Source: an uncultured Gammaproteobacteria bacterium (GTDB lineage Bacteria; Patescibacteriota; Microgenomatia; Woykebacterales; RBG-16-39-9b). From it: 64,000 nt of DNA. Positions within the stretch are counted from its first letter, which is position 1. Each line of letters opens with the position of its first letter. The DNA lies in assembly GCA_964643435.1 (NCBI GenBank), contig CAZXPY010000003.1:20344-84343 (forward strand), read 5' to 3'. A program made the position numbers and the translations under genes. Shown piece by piece: positions 13,557 to 54,513 of the stretch. The notes below the pieces were generated by a model. The model worked only from the letters and a program-made list of their open reading frames with translations. It made no database searches and was not told where the DNA came from.

Positions 13557-13586
13557 CTAAATTAATTGTACTTTATCCTGTAGTAC

Positions 13587-13615
13587 TTGACAATGCTTGA
13601 CTGCTTTGCTATAAT
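13587..13615 (+). promoter_or_regulatory. consensus sigma70 promoter TTGACA-17-TATAAT
   Basis: Exact consensus hexamers with a 17-nt spacer, firing into the GC-rich non-coding locus. Confidence 0.6.
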
Positions 13616-13833
13616 GCCTATAGTTTTCAAAAGGCTGAAACGGTCGAGCCGGGAAATTCCGCCTGGATATTGGGTCTTTACCCAAAGAACCTCTAAAGGA
13701 AGCCCAGCGAGGCTCCTGCGGGGGTCGTAATAGATCCAGAGTGCCCAGCAAAACCGTGTAAGCGTATCGGAGAGGATCTGGCCGGGTGGTCACGCAGTCT
13801 GCGCATAAAAGCGCGGAAAGGAGAAGGCCATAT

Positions 13834-13926
13834 ATGGCTGTTCCAAGTAACCGGTCGTTTTTGGACAAGTTCAACGTCTTCGACCCGGTCGCCACCTCCG
13901 TCGGCGTGACCATCACCCCGATCTGA
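13834..13926 (+). CDS. possible 30-aa ORF MAVPSNRSFLDKFNVFDPVATSVGVTITPI inside the candidate non-coding RNA
   Basis: ATG preceded by AAAGGAGAAGG; it may be a spurious ORF within a structured RNA. Confidence 0.15.
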   Translation: MAVPSNRSFLDKFNVFDPVATSVGVTITPI

Positions 13927-13992
13927 GGCGACCATCATCGTCTGGCCAGGTAACCTGATGGCGTAAAGCCCCAGGATCCTGGTCAAGACAAG

Positions 13993-14066
13993 CCCGCTGG
14001 GAGGAAAATCGCTACTCGAGATGATCAGAGCGAATACCCTTCTCCCAGCGGGCCTCTTACTTTTAT
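13993..14066 (+). terminator. intrinsic terminator: long stem CCCGCUGGGAG/CUCCCAGCGGG plus CCUCUUACUUUUAUAG tail
   Basis: Inverted repeat followed by a U-rich tract, plus orientation; the tail matches the terminator tail at 37396..37409. Confidence 0.5.
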
Positions 14067-14074
14067 AGACACTT

Positions 14075-14584
14075 TTAAACCGGCTGCTTTGGCGGCATCA
14101 AAAATTTCTTAGACTCTAAATCCAGGTCAACAAAACTATCCGCCTCACTAATTAATTTAGCACTGGTACTTTTACCAAAACCAATCACTTCAACCCGGTG
14201 TCCCTGGTTTCGTAAATACTCTAGGGCCGGTACGTAGTCTCCGTCTCCAGAAACTAAAACCATAACGTCTAGTTTTGGTCCTAGCCGGATCATATCGATC
14301 ACAATGCCTACGTCCCAGTCACCTTTTTTTACTCCGCCGGGAAAAATTTGAATATCTTTAGTTTTTACTTCAAAACCGCTTTTCTCTAAAGCTTCAAAAA
14401 AAGTTTGCTCTTCGGGTATATCGGCCTTAATTACATAAGCGAGTGCCCTTATTAACTGACGAGAATTAACCCCGGTTTCTAAAATTTTTGAAAAATTAAC
14501 CCTAGCGCCGTAAATATTGCGGGCACTATAATATAAATTTTGAACATCAACAAAAACACCGATCCGCTGGTTTATATTTCTCAA
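14075..14584 (-). CDS. NYN/LabA-like (DUF88) nuclease-domain protein
   Basis: VFVDVQNLYY N-terminus and the VLVSGDGDYVPALEYLRNQGHRVEVIGF motif typical of LabA/NYN PIN-like domains. Confidence 0.65.
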   Translation of the reverse strand: MRNINQRIGVFVDVQNLYYSARNIYGARVNFSKILETGVNSRQLIRALAYVIKADIPEEQTFFEALEKSGFEVKTKDIQIFPGGVKKGDWDVGIVIDMIRLGPKLDVMVLVSGDGDYVPALEYLRNQGHRVEVIGFGKSTSAKLISEADSFVDLDLESKKFLMPPKQPV

Positions 14585-32830: not shown

Positions 32831-33901
32831 GTGGATCAAAATACTCTTTTAATTATAATCGTGGCTATTCTTTTGGTTGGGTTTTTTATTTTCTTTCGGC
32901 AAATCCAAGATTTGCGCACTGGACGTGATAAGGATAAATCCCAAGAAATACTGCTCAAATGGCTAGAAGAAATGCGTTCCAGTGTCGATAAAAATACAGA
33001 AACTTTGCAAAAAAGATTGGAAGCTACCAATAAAGCGATAAATGAGCGGCTAGATAATGCTGCCAAGGTAATCGGTATGGTTGGCAAAGAAGTTGGTCAA
33101 ATGAGTGAAATTGGTCGAAGTATGAAAGAGCTACAGGATTTTCTACGTAGTCCCAAGCTACGCGGTAATATCGGTGAGCAAGTTTTACGAGAACTTTTAG
33201 GGCAATTTTTACCTAAAGAGAGCTTTCACTTACAATATCGGTTCCTTAGTGGTGAGATAGTGGATGCGGCGATAAAAACCGATTCCGGTATTATTCCAAT
33301 TGATTCAAAATTTCCAATGGAAAATTTTAAAGAGATTATGAAAGCGGAAAGTGAAGAAGAGAAGAAACTCTACGAGAAAGAATTTAGCCGCGATGTTAGA
33401 AAACACATCGATGATATTGCCAAAAAGTACATTTTACCGGAAGAAGGGACGATTGATTACGCTTTGATGTACGTTCCTTCGGAGCCAGTTTACTATGAGA
33501 TTATGAGCAATATTCCTGAACTTTCTGATTACTCCCATAAAAAAAGGGTGTTGCCAGTTTCCCCATCCACTTTTTACGCGTATATGCGGGCGATTTTAAT
33601 GAGTTTTGAAGGAAAAAAGATTGAAGAGCGCGCCCGGTCGATTTTGACAGCGCTTCGGGGGATTAAAGGAGACAGTGAAAAATTTGGCGAGGCTCTTCGT
33701 ATTCTTACCAAACACGTCACCGATACCAAGAACACTGCCGATCTTGTTAATGCCCGCTACATTTCGCTACACTCAAAGATAGACACGGCTGGTGGTTTAA
33801 AAGGTACAACTAGCAAGACCCTTGAGGAACCCGAAACCTTATCACTCGAAGAAGAGGAAGCCACTTCAGATGTGGCGGGAGAGATCACCGAAGAAAGGTA
33901 G
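32831..33901 (+). CDS. rmuC: DNA recombination protein RmuC
   Basis: N-terminal transmembrane helix, coiled coil and the RmuC C-terminal domain. Confidence 0.75.
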   Translation: MDQNTLLIIIVAILLVGFFIFFRQIQDLRTGRDKDKSQEILLKWLEEMRSSVDKNTETLQKRLEATNKAINERLDNAAKVIGMVGKEVGQMSEIGRSMKELQDFLRSPKLRGNIGEQVLRELLGQFLPKESFHLQYRFLSGEIVDAAIKTDSGIIPIDSKFPMENFKEIMKAESEEEKKLYEKEFSRDVRKHIDDIAKKYILPEEGTIDYALMYVPSEPVYYEIMSNIPELSDYSHKKRVLPVSPSTFYAYMRAILMSFEGKKIEERARSILTALRGIKGDSEKFGEALRILTKHVTDTKNTADLVNARYISLHSKIDTAGGLKGTTSKTLEEPETLSLEEEEATSDVAGEITEER

Positions 33902-34088
33902 AAAGAGACGGTAACCCATTGTCGGCTTGCAACCGCAGGTCGGCGTTTTCTTTTTAGTGATTAGTCCACGAAGTGGTCGCAGCATTCGGTAGTCCTTAGC
34001 CCTACGGGCGCAGAGCGCGAAGCGATCTTAATTACCTTCGCGATTAGCGAATGAATTTAGTTACGGGGAATGCTAAAATAATTTCGCA

Positions 34089-37025
34089 ATGAGTGAGGTT
34101 TTGGTTGGGTTAAATAGGCAGCAGAAAGAAGCGGTGACTACCACGGAGGGACCGCTTTTAATAATTGCTGGGGCGGGTACTGGCAAAACCACGGTTATTA
34201 CTCGCCGCATTGCCTACATAATTGAGCAAAAACTCGCGAAACCCTCTGAAATTTTAGCCCTCACTTTTACGGAAAAAGCGGCTGGAGAGATGGAAGAAAG
34301 AGTTGATGTGCTTGTTCCTTACGGCTATATTGATACCTGGATTAGTACCTTTCATGCCTTTGGAGAACGAATCTTGCGCGAAAACGCACTTGAGTTAGGT
34401 CTAACCCCTGATTTTAAAGTTCTAACAAGAAGCGCCCAAATTTTATTTTTCCAACAAAATCTGTTTTCTTTCGATTTAAATTTTTACCGACCGCTTTCTA
34501 ATCCCACTAAATTTATTGAAGCCATCTTAAATTTTATCAGTCGACTTAAGGATGAAGATATCACGCCTCAACAATATCTTCGATATGTTGAGAAGTTAAA
34601 AGTGAAAAGTTCAAAGTCAAAAATTGACAAAGAAGAAAAGAAAGAGTCGGAAATTGAAATTAAAAGGCAGGAAGAGCTGGCAAAAGTTTACGAGCAATAC
34701 GAACAGTTAAAATTACAAGCTGGTTTTCTGGATTTTGGGGATTTGGTGGTGCGGACACTGCGTTTTTTAAGAAAAAATAAAAAACAATTAAAAAAATACC
34801 AAGAAAAATTTAAATATATTTTAGTGGATGAGTTTCAAGACACAAATTGGGCCCAAAACGAATTAGTCAAACTTTTAGCTTCTGAAAAAGCAAACTTAGC
34901 CGTGGTCGCTGATGATGATCAAAGTATTTATCGTTTTCGGGGAGCCTCAATTAGTAATGTTTTAGATTTTAAAAAAACCTACGCAACCGCTAAAATCGTT
35001 ACTTTGTTTGAAAATTACCGCTCAAACCAAGCCGTTTTGGATAGTGCCTACGCTCTTATCCAAAAAAATAACCCCGATCGTCTCGAAGTAAGAGAAAAAA
35101 TTAATAAAAAACTAATTTCTAGGGTTGGTAAAGGAATTACCCCCCAGGAACTTTTTAGCCCGAACTTAACTGAAGAGGCAGATTTAGTAGCAGCGGAAAT
35201 CAAAAAACTAGTAATTAATAGAAAAATGCAATATAAAGAGGTTGCCATTTTAGTTAGAGCCAATAATCAAGCCGATTCCTTTATCCGCGCTTTAAATATA
35301 AAAGGTATTCCCAGTAAGTTGATAACCTCTTTTGGTTTGTACAATTCAAGTGAAATTAAACTTTTAATTTCGGCTTTAAACGCAATGTCTAATTTTGATA
35401 ATTCCGCTGCTCTCTTTAATTTAGCGACTGCCGAGATTTATAAACTACCGATGGAGGACGCTATCAAACTTAATAGTTTTGCTAGAAGAAAAGGCCGTAA
35501 TTTGTACCTCATTTTTCAAAAGGCAGAGAGCTTAAAGGAGACTTTGGAGTTAAGTGACGAGGGTTTAGGAAAAGTTAAAAGGATTTTACAAGATTTACAA
35601 ATTTTACTTGAATTATCCCGTAAGGAAAATGTCGGCAAAGTTTTATTTGAATTTTTAAGATTAAGTGGTTATTTGAAGGAATTAGAATCGGAAAATAGCT
35701 CCGAAGCAGAGGTTAAGATCCAAAATATCGCTAAATTTTTCACCAAAATTAAGGAGTTTATTGACACCTCTTCCAACGAATCAGTGTCAGCCTTTGTTGA
35801 TTATTTGGAAACTTTAAAAGGGTTTGGGGAGGATCCTGGTTCCGCGGCATACGATCCCGATTTAAATGCGGTTAACGTAATGACGATCCACGCTGCTAAA
35901 GGATTAGAATTTAGAGCGGTTTTTTTAGTAAATCTTGTTTCTGATCGGTTTCCCACTAGAGAGCGGCCAGACAAAATAGAAGTTCCTTCAGAGTTGATAA
36001 AAGAAACTCTACCAAGCGGAGATTACCATTTGGAGGAGGAAAGGCGATTATTTTATGTTGGTATGACAAGAGCTAAAGAGCTTCTTTATCTTTCCTGGTC
36101 ACGTGATAGCGGTGGTAAAAGAGTCAAAAAAATATCCCCTTTTTTGGTTGAAGCTTTGGGAAAATCAAAAGCAGTTTTGGCGGCTACCTCTGATCTTGAA
36201 AAAATTGAAAAGTTTGCCGCTCCTACCGCCGTAAAACCAATAAAGGAAGAAATTAAAATTTTGAAACTAACTCAAGGATCGATTGATGATTATAGAACCT
36301 GCGCTTACAAATACCGTTACGCTCACGTTTTAAAAGTGCCAATCTTACGCCACCACCCGGTGGTATATGGAGCCGCCCTACACCAAGCCGTGGCCGCTTT
36401 TTGGCAAACGAAATTAGCCCAAAAGTCTCCAAAACTGGAAGCTGTTTTGGAAGTGTTCGAACGCTACTTCGAATCAGAAGGATTTCTGTCAAAAGAGCAC
36501 GAGGAAAGAAGACTTTTAGTCGGGAAAAAAGTTTTACGCTCTTTTTGGAATCGAGAAAAAGATACTAAAAACCTCCCCACCTTTATTGAAAAAGAATTCC
36601 GGTTCAGTCTTGGCGATATTTTAATTAACGGTCGTTTCGATCGAGTTGATATTGATCCGGCAACTGCCGGAGTAAGAATTATTGATTATAAAGCCAGTGA
36701 AAGTAAGACTTTACCAGAGTTAGAAAAAGAGGCAAAAAATAGCGTACAGCTTAAAATTTACGCTCTTGGATATTATAAAAATTACAACGTTGTTCCTAAC
36801 AGTCTGGGAATTTACGCCTTAGAGTCTGGATTAGTTGGGGAATACAGACCTTCTTCAGAAATTTTGGAAGAAACTGAAAATTTAGTTAAAGAAGTTGCCG
36901 GCGACGTGCGCAAAAATTTAAAAGAGGATTATTTTCCGGCTAACCCGATTTATTTTGGGGAAAAAATCGCCTGTTTTTACTGCGCCTACGAATCCATTTG
37001 TCCTTTCAGCAAAGCCAACCGATAG
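34089..37025 (+). CDS. AddA/AdnB-like helicase-nuclease: UvrD-type helicase fused to a C-terminal PD-(D/E)XK nuclease with a Cys cluster
   Basis: IIAGAGTGKT Walker A and UvrD motifs; C-terminal CFYCAYESICPF cysteine cluster of Cas4/AddB type. Confidence 0.7.
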   Translation: MSEVLVGLNRQQKEAVTTTEGPLLIIAGAGTGKTTVITRRIAYIIEQKLAKPSEILALTFTEKAAGEMEERVDVLVPYGYIDTWISTFHAFGERILRENALELGLTPDFKVLTRSAQILFFQQNLFSFDLNFYRPLSNPTKFIEAILNFISRLKDEDITPQQYLRYVEKLKVKSSKSKIDKEEKKESEIEIKRQEELAKVYEQYEQLKLQAGFLDFGDLVVRTLRFLRKNKKQLKKYQEKFKYILVDEFQDTNWAQNELVKLLASEKANLAVVADDDQSIYRFRGASISNVLDFKKTYATAKIVTLFENYRSNQAVLDSAYALIQKNNPDRLEVREKINKKLISRVGKGITPQELFSPNLTEEADLVAAEIKKLVINRKMQYKEVAILVRANNQADSFIRALNIKGIPSKLITSFGLYNSSEIKLLISALNAMSNFDNSAALFNLATAEIYKLPMEDAIKLNSFARRKGRNLYLIFQKAESLKETLELSDEGLGKVKRILQDLQILLELSRKENVGKVLFEFLRLSGYLKELESENSSEAEVKIQNIAKFFTKIKEFIDTSSNESVSAFVDYLETLKGFGEDPGSAAYDPDLNAVNVMTIHAAKGLEFRAVFLVNLVSDRFPTRERPDKIEVPSELIKETLPSGDYHLEEERRLFYVGMTRAKELLYLSWSRDSGGKRVKKISPFLVEALGKSKAVLAATSDLEKIEKFAAPTAVKPIKEEIKILKLTQGSIDDYRTCAYKYRYAHVLKVPILRHHPVVYGAALHQAVAAFWQTKLAQKSPKLEAVLEVFERYFESEGFLSKEHEERRLLVGKKVLRSFWNREKDTKNLPTFIEKEFRFSLGDILINGRFDRVDIDPATAGVRIIDYKASESKTLPELEKEAKNSVQLKIYALGYYKNYNVVPNSLGIYALESGLVGEYRPSSEILEETENLVKEVAGDVRKNLKEDYFPANPIYFGEKIACFYCAYESICPFSKANR

Positions 37026-37047
37026 TCAATTTTATAACCTCTAGTAG

Positions 37048-37076
37048 TTGACAAAAGGATATAAATATGGTATAGT
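37048..37076 (+). promoter_or_regulatory. sigma70 promoter TTGACA-17-TATAGT (island cassette 1)
   Basis: Hexamers and spacer read directly. Confidence 0.55.
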
Positions 37077-37133
37077 AATTACATTAAATCCCCGCCTGGG
37101 GAATGGATTCATATTTTGGACAGGAGGTTCACA

Positions 37134-37298
37134 GTGTCTGGTCGGCAATTCGCGTCCTACGTGTACGGGAGCAACCGGCCCAAGAGTCAGCGGCCGTTCG
37201 AAGGTAGCGCACCACTGCGCAACCGCGACGCCCGCAACAGCCAGATCGTCAAGCCTAAGGAGGACAGCAAATCCTTCTGGGCGAAGGCCAACTGGTAG
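37134..37298 (+). CDS. small basic protein of unknown function (54 aa, GTG start, GGAGG Shine-Dalgarno), GC-rich
   Basis: GGAGG 6 nt upstream of the GTG; sequence MSGRQFASYVYGSNRPKSQRPFEGSAPLRNRDARNSQIVKPKEDSKSFWAKANW; followed by a terminator. Confidence 0.45.
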   Translation: MSGRQFASYVYGSNRPKSQRPFEGSAPLRNRDARNSQIVKPKEDSKSFWAKANW

Positions 37299-37356
37299 GA
37301 CCCGCCAACACCGCCGAAGAAATTCAAGGGAAAGTTTCGGCGGCAAGAATCCGTCT

Positions 37357-37409
37357 GAAGGGGTAGACGAAGCTCAATGCAACGCCTACCCCTTCCTCTT
37401 TACTTTTAC
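37357..37409 (+). terminator. intrinsic terminator GAAGGGGUAG...CUACCCCUUC plus CUCUUUACUUUUAC
   Basis: 10-bp stem and U-rich tail; the tail overlaps the -35 of the next cassette. Confidence 0.55.
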
Positions 37410-37426
37410 AACACAGCTGGTATAAT
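37399..37426 (+). promoter_or_regulatory. sigma70 promoter TTTACT-16-TATAAT (island cassette 2)
   Basis: Read directly. Confidence 0.45.
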
Positions 37427-37460
37427 CCGTCTCGGAATTGCTAATCAAAGGAGGGGATCC

Positions 37461-37919
37461 TTGCAGGTAGAGTACGAGACGAAAAAAGTCCCCAAGGATT
37501 ATAGGGGAGTGAGCGAGACGGCGACTCTTTTACAAGCAGTTTGCGATGTGCGGTTGTCCCCAAACTTTTACTACCCAGTAACGATTAATATTTTTGTAGA
37601 TGAAGAAACCGTAGAAACAAGAAACGTTGAGGTGACCCTACCTTATTATAACTTGGTGGGTAATCACTATATCTTGGTTAGGGACCAAAGAACCGCGGTT
37701 ATCAAGGCGGCATTGAAGAAAGACGAAGAAGCCTTCTTAGAAGCCTTCCAATCACCGGCGGCTGTTTCAGTACGCAAGCGGGGAAATCTCACCTGGCTTG
37801 TTTTTGCCCAAACAAACGGTAGCACCCCTAACGCCTCCCTCTTTCGCGGGGAAGCACTGGCAGGAGAGCGTGTAATCTGGAAAAACAAGATGCACGATCT
37901 CCGAATCACCAGTATTTAG
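37461..37919 (+). CDS. hypothetical protein (about 152 aa, TTG start, AAGGAGG Shine-Dalgarno), GC-rich; no recognisable family
   Basis: Shine-Dalgarno 7 nt upstream of the TTG; the ORF track extended it to an upstream in-frame start at 37377. Confidence 0.45.
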   Translation: MQVEYETKKVPKDYRGVSETATLLQAVCDVRLSPNFYYPVTINIFVDEETVETRNVEVTLPYYNLVGNHYILVRDQRTAVIKAALKKDEEAFLEAFQSPAAVSVRKRGNLTWLVFAQTNGSTPNASLFRGEALAGERVIWKNKMHDLRITSI

Positions 37920-37928
37920 ACTATGGGG

Positions 37929-37957
37929 TTGACAAAGCCTCGTAGTTATAGTATAAT
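37929..37957 (+). promoter_or_regulatory. consensus sigma70 promoter TTGACA-17-TATAAT (island cassette 3)
   Basis: Exact consensus hexamers. Confidence 0.6.
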
Positions 37958-38060
37958 AATCGACAACTAAGCTCAAAATAAGCCGCTGAAAGGAGAGTAG
38001 AAAGCGCGGCAAGAGCAAGTACACCTTATCCGTAAGTGCCTTGAAACTTTGGAGGTTACC

Positions 38061-38531
38061 TTGTCTCCAACACGGAGAATCCAAGATCAGCGTTTCGAGT
38101 GTAGCGTCGGGGTCGCGTCGTACTGCCTCAAATCCGCTCGTCTCGACGAGGACTTCAACATCAGGTCCCGCGACCAGGACATCCCGGCCCTCTGGGTCAA
38201 AACCAGCCGGGAAAGGGACGAGATGAGGGCGGAGGTGAAGGACCTGGTCGTCATCTGCGCTCCCTGCCGGGGATTCCTCATTCAGCGGTCCAAAGAGACC
38301 GGGAAGAAGATCGAGATGTCCCCCTTGAGGGATGTTCTCGCCCGCCGGGAGGATTCCGCCCGCCGCGAGGCCGACCGCGAGTCCACTAGAGCCGCTGCGA
38401 TCGCAAAGGCAGACGCCTTCCTGGACAAGCACGGGGAGCCGGCGGAACCTACAGCAGTCGCCGTCGCTCTCGAAGGGGCAGGGATCGACGCCGCCGGCAA
38501 GACTTTGGTCGAGGCCGGAGGCAAGAAGTAG
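38061..38531 (+). CDS. hypothetical protein (about 156 aa, TTG start, GGAGG Shine-Dalgarno), about 60% GC by hand count; charged with an Ala/Gly-rich tail
   Basis: GGAGG 5 nt upstream of the TTG; strong terminator downstream; no recognisable motif (there is a CAPC pair). Confidence 0.45.
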   Translation: MSPTRRIQDQRFECSVGVASYCLKSARLDEDFNIRSRDQDIPALWVKTSRERDEMRAEVKDLVVICAPCRGFLIQRSKETGKKIEMSPLRDVLARREDSARREADRESTRAAAIAKADAFLDKHGEPAEPTAVAVALEGAGIDAAGKTLVEAGGKK

Positions 38532-38547
38532 CCCCTGTCGTACCGAA

Positions 38548-38596
38548 GAGGACCTTGTTGATGTTCAACTCATCACCAAGGTCCTTTTTTATTTTT
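38548..38596 (+). terminator. intrinsic terminator AGGACCUUG...CAAGGUCCU plus UUUUUUAUUUUU
   Basis: 9-bp stem and a long U tract. Confidence 0.65.
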
Positions 38597-38666
38597 AAAA
38601 TTGCAAAAAAAGAGTATTAGTTTAATATACCGCATACCTTTGATGAGGTAATAATCCTATAGCCTG

Positions 38667-38694
38667 TTGATTTTCGAATTTTTTATGATATAAT
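38667..38694 (+). promoter_or_regulatory. sigma70 promoter TTGATT-16-TATAAT (island cassette 4)
   Basis: Read directly. Confidence 0.45.
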
Positions 38695-38753
38695 CAAACC
38701 GCTCTCATTGAGCAGAACCTTTACAAGTTAATTAAAAGCAGAAAGGAGCAGTT

Positions 38754-39746
38754 TTGGTCGAGAAATGCCTACACGGGGATGATCCTGACGATTGTTTAAT
38801 TTGTGATTTACCTAAATCACCTAAACTTTCAGATCTTGAGGAAGAAATTATTAGGGGCTTACATGGAGAAGCTGAAGGCGCACCCGAAAAAGTTCCTCTT
38901 GAGTACAGCGAACTTCCTTCTGGTGTTGCCTTAATCGTTGATCTGGACAATTTTATTGCCAGCGCCAAACCAAAAGGTCTAAGACTTTCGGGCAAGGTTT
39001 TAACTGAAAAAGCCCGAAGCTTTGGTAAAGTTTTGCACGCTCACGCCTATAGCGACTTTACCCAAGTTGGTCAAGATATCGTCAAAGACCTTTATATCAA
39101 CGGTATAAGAATGATTCATTGCCCAAAGTTGCCTGTGGCCACTGAAAGCGGTGGGACCGATCTTAAAGACACGGTCGATCCGGTCTTCATCGAAGGCGTC
39201 CACACCCTCTTGTTTGACGAGAGGGTTGGTACTTTCATCTTTGCCGCTGGGGACAGAGATTATCTGCCAGCCTTAAACACGGTTCGACAGCAGGGTCGAA
39301 AAACCGTTGTGTTGCTACCAGGTCACGCCCACAGTCTCTTAAGAGCAAGAGCGGACGAAGTAGTGGATATCTTTGGTCCGCTAACAGCGGAAATTGACGA
39401 ACTCCCGGGAAGGTTTCTCCGGCTTACCCTTCCCGATATGAGGGAAGCTCTCCTCGCTGATTCCGACACTGCTTTTACCGTGGAATTCGTCGCCGATGTC
39501 TTCAAAGCAATAAAGCCCTTTCTTTCGCAAGCGGCCGCACTTGGTTACTTACAAATCGAAACAATTGTTTTGGCGAAAAGACGGGAGTTTCGCCACCAAC
39601 TACTTGGCGGAGAGCTGGACATCAAAAAGGCTCTCCAAGCCCTAGTTGACGGCGGGGTAATTATCCAAAACACAAAAAGAAAGGAAGTAAAATATTACGT
39701 AGTTAATTTGGAACACCCTTTTACCATCTTGGCAGAAGAGATCTAA
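38754..39746 (+). CDS. NYN-domain nuclease with an N-terminal Cys cluster and a C-terminal OST-HTH/LOTUS-like domain (330 aa, TTG start)
   Basis: VALIVDLDNF and FAAGDRDYLPALNTVRQQGRKTVVL NYN motifs; CLHGDDPDDCLICD at the N-terminus; AGGAG 5 nt upstream of the start. Confidence 0.6.
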   Translation: MVEKCLHGDDPDDCLICDLPKSPKLSDLEEEIIRGLHGEAEGAPEKVPLEYSELPSGVALIVDLDNFIASAKPKGLRLSGKVLTEKARSFGKVLHAHAYSDFTQVGQDIVKDLYINGIRMIHCPKLPVATESGGTDLKDTVDPVFIEGVHTLLFDERVGTFIFAAGDRDYLPALNTVRQQGRKTVVLLPGHAHSLLRARADEVVDIFGPLTAEIDELPGRFLRLTLPDMREALLADSDTAFTVEFVADVFKAIKPFLSQAAALGYLQIETIVLAKRREFRHQLLGGELDIKKALQALVDGGVIIQNTKRKEVKYYVVNLEHPFTILAEEI

Positions 39747-39752
39747 GTTCTC

Positions 39753-39786
39753 AAAGCCATCCGGCCCTCGTCGGATGGCTTTTTTG
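39753..39786. terminator. intrinsic terminator AAGCCAUCCG...CGGAUGGCUU plus UUUUUG, placed between convergent genes
   Basis: 10-bp stem and a U tract on the plus strand; it also lies downstream of the minus-strand FemAB gene. Confidence 0.55.
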
Positions 39787-39789
39787 CTT

Positions 39790-40689
39790 CTAAAAAACCT
39801 CACCAACTTTGAAAAGAGTTTTTATTAAAGGGTTGTAGTATTTAGTAAAAGAGCCAATAAAAGTAACTTCTTCTCCGCCAAATCCGCGTTTAAAATGACT
39901 AAACCCCTGCCACCTTTTCGTGTAAGGAATTCGGCTATCTTCAATTCCTTCCAAATCTAGGATTTCGCAGCCTCTTTTTTTAGAAAGTCTTATTGTTTCC
40001 CAAAGTATAAGGTAAGAAGCGAAAAAATCTCTTTTCTGCGCACTAGAAGCAGCGTGAAGATAGTAAGAAATATTATCCCAAAAGAAAACCATCGCTGCCG
40101 CCAAAGGTTGGGTATTGGTATCTTTATGATAAGCAAAAAGCAAGGTAGCGGCATTTTCTTTAGAAAAAACCGCCCATTTTGTTCGCAATTCTTTTAAAGG
40201 ACCAATCCAAAAGCGGTTCCGCTTAGCGGTTTCTTGGTAAAGATCTAAAAAAGCTTCAAAATCCCCAGATTCTCGGACTTTTACTCCTTTTCTTATTGCA
40301 AGGTTTATTGAATATCTGGTATCTTTTTCCATTTTTTTTAGTAGTTCTTCTTCGGATACCTTTAAATCAATCTGAATTGTTTTGGTGTTGGTCAGAGCCC
40401 ACTTGTCTTGAGAGTATTGATTCCTCTTTAGGGGCGCATAAATTTTTTTATAATTGCCCGTATTATTAATTGGAAAATTTGGTTCTATTTTGACAAACAA
40501 AGCCTTATTTTCTTTAGCAATAATATCAATTTGACTAAAAGGTAAGGGGAGGTCTATTTTAGGAGCTTTAAGTATCGATCCGAAAAAAGATAAATTTTTT
40601 ATATAAATATAATTTTTAATTTCTTTAGCTTCCCAACCCAGCTTTTCTAAATACTGGGCCCAAAGCGGAGATTGGCGTAAATCAGCCAT
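39790..40689 (-). CDS. FemAB-family aminoacyl-tRNA-dependent peptidoglycan bridge-forming transferase (paralog 1)
   Basis: FemAB-family architecture and the conserved IEPN motif. Confidence 0.65.
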   Translation of the reverse strand: MADLRQSPLWAQYLEKLGWEAKEIKNYIYIKNLSFFGSILKAPKIDLPLPFSQIDIIAKENKALFVKIEPNFPINNTGNYKKIYAPLKRNQYSQDKWALTNTKTIQIDLKVSEEELLKKMEKDTRYSINLAIRKGVKVRESGDFEAFLDLYQETAKRNRFWIGPLKELRTKWAVFSKENAATLLFAYHKDTNTQPLAAAMVFFWDNISYYLHAASSAQKRDFFASYLILWETIRLSKKRGCEILDLEGIEDSRIPYTKRWQGFSHFKRGFGGEEVTFIGSFTKYYNPLIKTLFKVGEVF

Positions 40690-44444: not shown

Positions 44445-44494
44445 ACAAGTAACAACCGTTATGTTAATATATTTTTTGGAGGACTAGGAAATTT

Positions 44495-44770
44495 ATGAGC
44501 GTTGAGTTCTTGGATTTTTATGCAGATTGGTGTGGTCCGTGTATTATTATGGATCCAGTAATTGAAGAGATTAAAAAAGAGTATTCTGGGAAGGTTGAAA
44601 TTAGAAAAATTGATGTTGATAAAAATGAGGAAGAGCCGGCTAAGTATGGCGTGATGAGCATACCTACTTACATTCTCTTAAAGAATGGTAAGGAGGCTGA
44701 TAGAGTAGTTGGTGCCGTTCCGAAACAAGTACTAAAAAATAAAGTTGAGGCAGCCTTGCACGCTTCTTAA
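44495..44770 (+). CDS. trxA: thioredoxin
   Basis: WCGPC active site. Confidence 0.85.
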   Translation: MSVEFLDFYADWCGPCIIMDPVIEEIKKEYSGKVEIRKIDVDKNEEEPAKYGVMSIPTYILLKNGKEADRVVGAVPKQVLKNKVEAALHAS

Positions 44771-44831
44771 AACGCGATTTACTTCATTTCTCCTTCTTCC
44801 CTAAAATTTTCTGGGTGGTAAAATCATAAAG

Positions 44832-54185: not shown

Positions 54186-54214
54186 TTGACATAAACCAAT
54201 GATGGTGGTATAAT
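54186..54214 (+). promoter_or_regulatory. consensus sigma70 promoter TTGACA-17-TATAAT
   Basis: Exact consensus hexamers; fires into the non-coding GC-rich segment. Confidence 0.6.
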
Positions 54215-54220
54215 TATTTT

Positions 54221-54495
54221 GGTTCAGTCTGACCTGGCTGGTGCGAGTAGGCAATGACTAGTCTTTGGAAGTAGTCAACCACCGCAGGGGCATAAGCTCT
54301 CGTCAGATACGGCTGAATCCCGGGTGTCCGCTGCAGGGAAAAGGGTTTGGCTTTTTTGCCCGGCCGAAAGACCTCCCCTGTTCTAACCAGCCAGCACCCA
54401 CAGGGCGCTATTAAGCTACAATGCACTAGATTATTGTAGCTTAACGCAATCTCCAACCAGGTTTTTCGATCTTTCGGGAGACCTGGTTTCCCTTT
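54221..54495 (+). ncRNA. candidate structured non-coding RNA of about 270 nt between lepA and hrcA; identity unresolved (6S, SRP and RNase P considered)
   Basis: No ORF. Nested long-range helices CUGGCUGG/CCAGCCAG and CAGGGG/CCCCUG, plus local hairpins. Promoter and terminator are both plus-oriented. Confidence 0.35.
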
Positions 54496-54499
54496 TATT
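54455..54499 (+). terminator. intrinsic terminator AACCAGGU...ACCUGGUU plus UCCCUUUUAUU
   Basis: 8-bp stem and a U-rich tail, immediately before the hrcA promoter. Confidence 0.5.
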
Positions 54500-54513
54500 A
54501 AAGATTCTCGGTC

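Follow-up and report, generated by a model that had tools for sequence, protein, structure and literature searches.

In phages, the ‘morons’ of Hendrix and colleagues are autonomous promoter–gene–terminator units of atypical composition that lie between conserved genes. Another class of compact transcripts comprises dual-function small RNAs (sRNAs) such as SgrS/SgrT, RNAIII/hld and SR1/SR1P, and bacterial mRNAs in general are protected by 5′ stem–loops and strong 3′ hairpins. At the protein level, the NYN domain belongs to the PIN-like nuclease superfamily, which is used by many toxins. Bacterial nucleases of the DUF88 type, in which this domain is found, are stand-alone proteins without conserved neighborhoods, sometimes fused to Zn-knuckles (PMC2848206), and the NYN domain of MARF1 relies on four catalytic Asp residues plus an Asn (D178/N181, D215, D246, D272) (PMC6217404). 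The present analysis concerns a GC-rich island of 2.8 kb (37026–39789) with four open reading frames (ORF1–4) within a 64,000-nt stretch of contig CAZXPY010000003.1 (assembly GCA_964643435.1), referred to as the window. The island is located between a UvrD-helicase/PD-(D/E)XK gene (34089–37025), hereafter the helicase gene, and two FemAB-family genes that are convergent with it, and its fourth frame encodes an NYN protein.

The reading defended here, to which a probability of about 0.5 is given, is that the island fills a variable chromosomal slot and carries four independently promoted, lineage-restricted and probably functionally independent genes. Its closest relative is the island of a sister species (contig L001), whose proteins are 74–86% identical and which is known from several groundwater metagenomes, including the Rifle ‘ANAN16’ samples; a metagenome scan recovered one further sister contig. 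With the helicase as bait, the nearest species-representative genomes are those of Candidatus Woykebacteria (Patescibacteria/Candidate Phyla Radiation, CPR), at a protein identity of just 61–64%.

Since chance ORFs are common at 60–65% GC (a 221-aa antisense ORF overlaps ORF3), the coding status of the four frames had to be established. Translation confirmed the product lengths of 54, 152, 156 and 330 aa, and codon-level comparison shows that all four are real protein-coding genes under purifying selection. This judgment relies on five types of evidence. Substitutions relative to the sister species are concentrated at the third positions of the called frames. Indels in ORF3 are in frame (6 nt and 12 nt), the other indels starting immediately beyond the ORFs, and ORF1 is free of indels and retains the same stop codon. 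The ratios of non-synonymous to synonymous substitution rates (dN/dS) are 0.44, 0.34, 0.38 and 0.16 for ORF1, ORF2, ORF3 and the NYN gene, respectively, versus 0.11–0.15 for the flanking genes. Identical residues are often encoded by different codons, namely 15 of the 20 shared by ORF1 and its homolog in the Woykebacteria contig L012 (including two TCN↔AGY serine switches) and 29 of the 39 shared by ORF3 and the distant homolog P0011 (contig L094). Finally, the antisense ORFs over ORF1 and ORF3, considered as candidates, were rejected: their frames are not conserved and substitutions hit their first codon position. Non-synonymous evolution of ORF1–3 is three to six times faster than that of the neighbors.

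The island was described in the first-pass annotation as four monocistronic cassettes, each with its own promoter. The four near-consensus sigma70-type sites were found exactly at 37048, 37399, 37929 and 38667, and the −35 box of the third starts 9 nt past the ORF2 stop (37919). Promoter sites matching at 10 of 12 positions are not rare by chance in this DNA (26 observed versus 39 in shuffles), so that the reality of the promoters rests on conservation: the four sites are almost unchanged in the sister species, P4 recurs in a third lineage and orthology of P1 extends over seven. Likewise, AGGAGG or GGAGG sequences lie 5–6 nt ahead of each start codon, as had been claimed, and none of these codons is ATG (GTG for ORF1 and TTG for ORF2–4, at 37134, 37461, 38061 and 38754). 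The start codons are conserved in relatives (L001 and L092), and ATG is used in 12 of the 16 non-island gene calls of the sister contig versus none of four in the island; four non-ATG starts out of four suggest restrained or conditionally regulated translation initiation. As to termination, the hairpins announced after units 1, 3 and 4 were recovered (T1 at 37360–37392, T3 at 38546–38588 and T4 at 39753), the tail of T1 does hold the −35 box of P2, and no terminator was detected between the ORF2 stop and P3. Because ORF2 has no terminator of its own, the picture of four cassettes holds for the promoters and has to be corrected for the transcripts, with three terminator-bounded units, one of them with an internal promoter; it is therefore predicted that P2 transcripts read through ORF3.

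In the same comparison with the sister species, promoters, 5′-proximal leader hairpins and terminators are shown by their alignment to be more conserved than the coding sequence. Most non-coding segments are 89–93% identical (with exceptions at 83% for P3 and its leader, 74% for T4 and 100% for T3), while the ORFs are 78–89% identical with synonymous divergence (dS) of 0.25–0.94. The T1 hairpin plus tail has a single difference, located in the tail, and T4 shows compensatory stem changes over three lineages, as in an ordinary terminator. A small stem–loop is predicted at the 5′ end of each transcript, where variation is compensatory or restricted to the loop. The unit 3 leader illustrates this over a larger distance, its stem being replaced by GCCTTG/CAAGGC in L094 with retention of the loop motif GAAAGGAG. 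From such signals, high expression of the units is plausible. As a separate observation, the NYN gene has a dS of 0.94, versus 0.24–0.60 for its neighbors, yet its promoter and leader are nearly invariant. It was also seen by eye that a motif containing ATAG or CTAG precedes the −35 box by 2–5 nt in many strong promoters, for example CTCTAGTAG-TTGACA and CCATAGTAC-TTGACA; it occurs in the window at 37038–37047, 38656–38666 and 13577–13586, and also in L012, L094 and L015, and may act as an UP-like element or as the site of a factor.

Adjacency of the helicase and FemAB genes is widespread in CPR bacteria. It is direct in L032 and L067. In the slots of Woykebacteria (L012–L017), the gaps are of 0.8–3.2 kb, with a local GC content of 0.54–0.66 versus 0.38–0.44 and differing contents. 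The L012 slot contains an ORF1-like peptide and no NYN gene. A common 57-aa family occupies those of L013 and L014, and its kinship with the ORF1 family was dismissed upon comparison. A TrpR/YerC-like gene is present in L014 and L015, and in L017 an ORF3-like gene apparently forms one operon with an unrelated gene for a 145-aa protein; this partner was compared with ORF2 and displays no similarity to it. Several other proteins occur once each. Assignment of a 347-aa slot protein of L015 as MYG1-like was not supported, its only hit being a sub-threshold one to ChrB_C. What is constant in the slot is a strong extended −10 promoter directly after the helicase gene, orthologous to P1 in all seven lineages, and it is the only part of the island with DNA-level homology to the slots of relatives.

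Units can also be found elsewhere. The P0011 gene (positions 424–1119 of L094; also L095) lies between purB and purC/E in another CPR genome. There it retains a 12/12 promoter and a terminator, the GC content is locally raised, and the leader hairpin combines the GAAAGGAG loop with a stem that has co-varied. The units thus appear to be self-contained expression modules occurring independently of each other. This independence in relatives argues against an obligate four-component system, and the four genes are probably functionally independent accessory genes. The same four-gene block is not present in all relatives, the full set being restricted to two lineages.

A single system is nonetheless conceivable, and had been put forward as a defence, anti-defence or toxin–antitoxin (TA)-like module. 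Such an RNA-targeting system would use the NYN protein as effector and ORF1–3 as sensor, inhibitor or adaptor. It would account for the conservation of the four genes, of their order and of their regulatory DNA in two lineages; the membership of NYN in the PIN-like superfamily and the fast evolution of ORF1–3, like that of arms-race genes, would also be in keeping with it. However, none of the four proteins has a PADLOC match at E ≤ 1, the genes belong to separate transcription units, unlike those of TA operons, and ORF1 or ORF3 homologs occur without NYN in L012, L017 and L094, NYN being absent from all more distant relatives. Moreover, dN/dS values stay under 0.5 and give no hint of positive selection, and bacterial DUF88 nucleases lack conserved neighborhoods (PMC2848206). 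A single module is accordingly considered improbable. The comparison with VapBC type II TA systems goes the same way: the PIN-like superfamily fold of NYN and the small neighboring genes are similar, but the island has no bicistronic autoregulated operon (NYN having its own promoter and terminator), its nuclease has 330 aa and additional domains, co-occurrence of the partners is lacking and no antitoxin-type DNA-binding domain is present.

The island differs strongly from its surroundings in base composition. Its GC content is 0.491, compared with 0.375 and 0.372 in the 20 kb on each side and 0.383 for the window, and reaches 0.64–0.65 in 300-nt windows at 38.1–38.55 kb, where the 200-nt peak of 0.68 is the maximum of the window, ∼5 standard deviations over the mean. 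The contrast between island and flanks noted initially is thus real upon recalculation (49% versus 37–38%) and not uniform along the DNA, although the flanks had been estimated too low, at 30–35% GC instead of ∼37%. At third codon positions, the GC content (GC3) is 0.82 for ORF1, 0.78 for ORF3, 0.52 for ORF2 and 0.435 for NYN, whereas 33 other genes have 0.316 ± 0.035 (range 0.26–0.38); the corresponding z-scores are +14.4, +13.4, +5.7 and +3.4. The sister species has nearly the same values (0.82, 0.76, 0.48 and 0.38 in this order), and the small slot genes of distant relatives have a GC3 of 0.53–0.76 versus 0.32–0.42 in their helicase genes.

Horizontal acquisition, also proposed at the outset, would explain such values if the cassettes (at a minimum ORF1 and ORF3) had come from a high-GC donor, be it a host organism, a phage or a plasmid, into the common ancestor with the sister species and had not yet ameliorated. 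Indeed, GC3 values of 0.78–0.82 and the codon choice are like those of high-GC organisms, the slot content varies among relatives and the ORF3 homolog in another context (L094) suggests unit mobility. With flanking-gene dS between the window and the sister species (about 0.24–0.6) as a clock, a two-state decay model, in which background GC3 is taken as the mutational equilibrium, gives an ancestral GC3 of 0.91–0.98 with the slowest clock, which would be enough for import, and above 1 otherwise, so that two of the three clock estimates need values near or above 1. Additional results make import unlikely. Homologs outside this CPR clade were not found, either by HMMER with the ORF3 profile in 1.84 billion representatives or by word-indexed searches with ORF2, ORF3 and NYN in 5.8 billion clusters. 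There are no viral relatives, and a survey of mobility marks revealed no integrase and no repeats, direct or inverted, at the borders, the sole tRNA of the window being located at 22.3 kb. The promoters are of host type, with P1 orthologous in all relatives. When third-position changes in NYN are polarized, none of three branches has a surplus in the GC-to-AT direction, i.e. no decay is seen, and distant homologs still have a GC3 of 0.52–0.71 where synonymous sites should be saturated. The claim of acquisition is therefore not supported, whereas the other term of the initial proposal, special maintenance, is supported by extreme GC3 values equal in the sister species, by enriched distant homologs, by the high ancestral GC3 that neutral decay would need and by regulatory DNA better conserved than coding sequence. 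Selection or some biased process of local action probably keeps the GC3 of ORF1 and ORF3 high, which would then not reflect recent import. High expression was rejected as the cause since GroEL and DnaK have background GC3. Folding of coding sequences (CDSs) compared with synonymous shuffles gave z-scores from −2.2 to +0.6 with no consistent signal; as shuffling synonymous codons produces no consistent loss of folding, it is the composition that seems to be maintained and not a particular fold.

These data also define how the island compares with mobile elements. With acquired genomic islands or islets it shares the compositional anomaly (composition and codon usage are atypical for the host), the presence of orphan genes and a fixed place in the chromosome where the content varies; it differs in being only 2.8 kb long and in having no integrase, tRNA target, direct repeats, identifiable donor or signs of amelioration. 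Similarity to phage morons is seen in the sigma70-type promoters proper to each unit, in terminators that are mostly their own (not for unit 2), in deviant composition, in the location between conserved genes, in variation among relatives and in the occurrence of the ORF3 unit in a second context. In contrast to morons, the island lies in a bacterial chromosome with housekeeping flanks, has nothing significant in PHROGs and no viral relatives, keeps its GC-rich composition stable over time and starts with a promoter ancestral to the slot.

Another alternative, to which a low probability is assigned, is that the GC-rich parts act mainly as structured non-coding RNAs (ncRNAs), unit 1 being a dual-function RNA with a secondary ORF in a class that includes two other GC-rich units of the window, at 13.6 and 54.2 kb. 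Among promoters of the window with at least 11/12 matches, of which there are six, four precede GC-rich units. The 13.6-kb unit has only a 30-codon ORF (ATG at 13835), a fold z-score of −5.5 and no Rfam match, and is a candidate for an unclassified structured RNA or an RNA bearing a small ORF. The 54.2-kb unit, with no credible ORF, a fold z-score of −4.5 and no Rfam match, is a candidate novel ncRNA by the hrcA–grpE–dnaK region. The unit 1 transcript folds nearly as well (z = −4.25), its 5′ and 3′ hairpins display compensatory or loop-only changes, and the ORF1 CDS has synonymous-shuffle z-scores of −1.9 in the window and −2.2 in L012. Against this idea, the value is −0.2 in L001, the ORF3 CDS does not fold better than its synonymous shuffles (+0.4 and +0.6), and z is just −1.9 for the unit 3 transcript and 0 for unit 2. 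With Rfam 15, only tRNA-Cys reached the gathering score in the window and nothing credible was found in the island at E ≤ 5, while protein-level selection on ORF1 and ORF3 is clear. For the GC peaks of the island, a structured-RNA explanation was thus set aside given the absence of Rfam matches, the codon-level coding evidence and the lack of a consistent shuffle-fold signal. Resemblance to GC-rich ncRNAs and dual-function sRNAs persists in that the island transcripts are short, GC-rich, strongly promoted and terminator-bounded, that unit 1 combines a good fold with an encoded small peptide, and that two sibling units in the window appear non-coding; the differences are the protein-level selection on ORF1 and ORF3, the lack of selection for a specific CDS fold and the lack of an Rfam family.

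A more speculative and rather unlikely possibility joins two ideas, which may hold together or separately. First, the GC-rich unit of the slot behind P1, ancestral and strongly transcribed, would be a cradle of new genes, where stop-poor GC-rich transcripts, siblings of the 13.6- and 54.2-kb units, would have yielded unrelated small proteins in each lineage, such as the ORF1 family (window, L001 and L012) and the unrelated 57-aa family (L013 and L014). Second, the extreme GC content itself would be selected as the mark of a composition-coded RNA class, with transcripts escaping, or recognized by, an A/U- or G-directed RNase, for instance the NYN protein.

Returning to the reading of four lineage-restricted genes, ORF1–3 were called unrecognizable initially, and indeed they have no match in Pfam, NCBIfam, PHROGs, PADLOC or PDB sequences. 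Word-indexed searches of the 5.8 billion clusters with ORF2, ORF3 and NYN (not ORF1) retrieved only the query itself plus one or two close lineages, and three scans of viral contigs gave no relatives. On these search results, ORF1–3 are clade-restricted orphan families. ORF1 is basic and of low complexity, with the conserved core MSG-Q-A--VYG...FEG...R-R-AR-S, and its homolog in the L012 slot was detected at E = 3e-6. For ORF2, the clusters contain only itself and a sister homolog with 86% identity, and its sequence has no informative feature. ORF3 has conserved Cys residues (C14, C22, C66 and C69), a CAPCRGFLI motif, a long charged helix and a variable Ala/Gly-rich tail; its homologs are P0001 (74%), P0011 (33%, E = 2e-11) and the L017 protein (E = 8e-6), and an exhaustive HMMER search of the 1.84 billion representatives with its profile returned P0011 as the one true distant relative. 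The AlphaFold2 model of ORF3 is of low confidence (predicted local distance difference test score, pLDDT, of 59.5), and a Foldseek comparison of this low-confidence model with the PDB gave only noise (best E of 1.4, template modeling score ≤0.24).

ORF4, in contrast, can be classified, and on sequence grounds represents a new and divergent addition to the bacterial DUF88/NYN nucleases, with a Zn-knuckle-like motif. Residues 58–206 match Pfam NYN (PF01936) over profile positions 2–144 of 145 at 47.7 bits (gathering score 24.2; E = 2.9e-12), both homologs carry the same precomputed Pfam family, and the gene was found only in the clade of the window, in three lineages. The N-terminal Cys cluster noticed in the first reading is a C-x-H-x6-C-x2-C motif (C5, H7, C14 and C17) that is invariant in the three lineages, as are D63-x-x-N66, D101, D139/D142 and D167-x-D169. 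The spacing of these acidic residues, matched by motifs, is compatible with the catalytic set of MARF1 (PMC6217404), so that the acidic active site is apparently intact. ORF4 thus resembles DUF88/LK-nucleases in its significant PF01936 match, Zn-knuckle-like motif, monocistronic organization and lack of conserved partners at larger distance (PMC2848206), and probably MARF1 in its Asp/Asn spacing. It differs from MARF1-like proteins combining NYN and OST-HTH/LOTUS domains, since the C-terminal LOTUS-like domain initially proposed was not detected: OST-HTH (PF12872) gave no Pfam hit at E ≤ 1 with the full protein or at E ≤ 10 with the isolated C-termini of three homologs, and a profile search of PDB sequences retrieved no LOTUS chain. 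The solved NYN/LOTUS representatives 2kpm and 2qip were not recovered in this search, ORF4, with only three close lineages known, being too divergent to match them. No domain could be assigned by sequence to the C-terminal region of ∼100 aa, and the AlphaFold model of ORF4 (pLDDT 33) is too poor for fold assessment, which leaves room for a very divergent winged helix. LOTUS domains were reported to bind G-rich RNA (PMC7498356), a property that would be suggestive in the vicinity of GC-rich transcripts but is moot for ORF4 as long as the domain is undetected.

Taken as a whole, the locus would operate as follows. An ancestral strong promoter would fire into the variable slot between the helicase–nuclease and FemAB genes, and each unit, through its near-consensus extended −10 promoter, 5′ stem–loop, GC-rich body and strong terminator hairpin, would give an abundant and long-lived transcript, the translation of which would be restrained by the TTG or GTG start. 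ORF4 would act by itself as an endonuclease of the DUF88/LK-nuclease type, cleaving single-stranded RNA with Mg2+ and binding its substrate through the Zn-knuckle and a C-terminal helical domain. ORF1 (basic and of low complexity) and ORF3 (with a four-Cys metal site and a long charged helix) may be small factors that bind nucleic acids or proteins. Codon usage would be kept GC-rich by selection or a local biased process acting on composition and not on one RNA fold.

Several points weigh against this interpretation. In both lineages that have all four genes, these are kept side by side and their regulatory DNA is highly conserved, which would also fit a functional link. The strength of the promoters, the stability of the transcripts and read-through from P2 are only predictions, and the biochemical roles of ORF1–3 rest on composition and on the low-confidence model of ORF3. 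As to the high GC3, the argument from neutral decay equates background GC3 with mutational equilibrium, and its slowest clock permits the high-GC ancestor mentioned above. Lastly, most comparisons rest on two or three close lineages.

Table 1. Coordinates of the island’s genes and expression signals and of two further GC-rich units in the window
Feature	Position	Strand	Description
Promoter P1	37048..37076	+	TTGACA-17-TGgTATAGT, extended −10; 11/12 plus TG; scan; one base differs in sister species
5′-proximal stem–loop, transcript 1	37089..37102	+	CCCCGCCTGGGG; predicted fold; outer pair C–G to U–A in L001 (compensatory)
ORF1	37134..37298	+	54-aa basic, probably disordered peptide; GTG start; GC3 0.82
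3′ untranslated region hairpin, unit 1	37311..37343	+	CCGCCGA...TCGGCGG; in minimum free energy fold; stem kept, loop 26 nt longer in L001
Terminator T1	37360..37407	+	Hairpin 37360–37392; interrupted U-tail overlapping P2 −35; fold; unique in window
Promoter P2	37399..37426	+	TTTACT-16-TGgTATAAT; 10/12 plus TG; scan; identical in L001
ORF2	37461..37919	+	152-aa orphan; TTG start; GC3 0.52; no terminator downstream
Promoter P3	37929..37957	+	TTGACA-17-TATAAT; 12/12; scan; conserved in L001
Leader hairpin, unit 3	37982..38010	+	Loop with GAAAGGAG; stem GCCGC/GCGGC in window and L001
ORF3	38061..38531	+	156-aa orphan; TTG start; GC3 0.78
Terminator T3	38546..38598	+	Inverted repeat 38546–38588, 18-nt arms, 7-nt loop, then T-run; unique in window
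Promoter P4	38667..38694	+	TTGATT-16-TGaTATAAT; 10/12 plus TG; scan; −35 and extended −10 kept in three lineages
5′-proximal leader hairpin, unit 4	38699..38715	+	GCTC-loop-GAGC; stem kept, loop varies in L092
ORF4	38754..39746	+	330-aa divergent NYN (PF01936/DUF88 ‘LK-nuclease’); TTG start
Terminator T4	39753..39782	.	13 pairs; scan; common to convergent NYN and FemAB genes
GC-rich unit (13.6 kb)	13585–14075	+	12/12 extended −10 promoter 13587–13615; ∼450 nt, GC 0.54–0.57; strong terminator hairpin
GC-rich unit (54.2 kb)	54186–54500	+	12/12 extended −10 promoter; ∼290 nt GC-rich; 15-bp terminator hairpin; before HrcA-like gene (54553)

The window is ordinary chromosome, with genes for rnpA, yidC, RNase H, ribosomal protein L25, GroEL, HrcA and DnaK. 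Two differences from the sister species were seen. An IS200-type Y1 transposase gene (5316–5909 of L001) lies between the RmuC and helicase genes in most sister contigs, L006 lacking it, and a VapBC-like pair (a 98-aa protein plus PIN; 16482–17149 of L001) follows a second UvrD helicase gene in the sister species. As judged from gene spacing (33901–34089 and 44445–44831, respectively), both are absent from the window.

CPR/Patescibacteria have small AT-rich genomes with many unknown genes, and the control of their expression is almost uncharted. The locus provides well-defined transcription units, validated by comparison, whose promoters, leader hairpins, start codons and terminators might be used as regulatory reference parts for the lineage. 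It also adds to the DUF88/NYN RNases a divergent branch bearing a Zn-knuckle. The two small protein families with a GC3 of ∼0.8, seemingly maintained in a genome with a GC3 of 0.32, form an uncommon pattern that bears on selection at synonymous sites, on mRNA stability and possibly on the origin of orphan genes. If the GC-rich transcripts and the two candidate ncRNAs do form a functional class, they would constitute a lineage-specific post-transcriptional layer; and should the slot be a cradle of genes with composition-coded transcripts, a CPR bacterium would offer a case of genes born de novo and of an RNA class defined by its composition.

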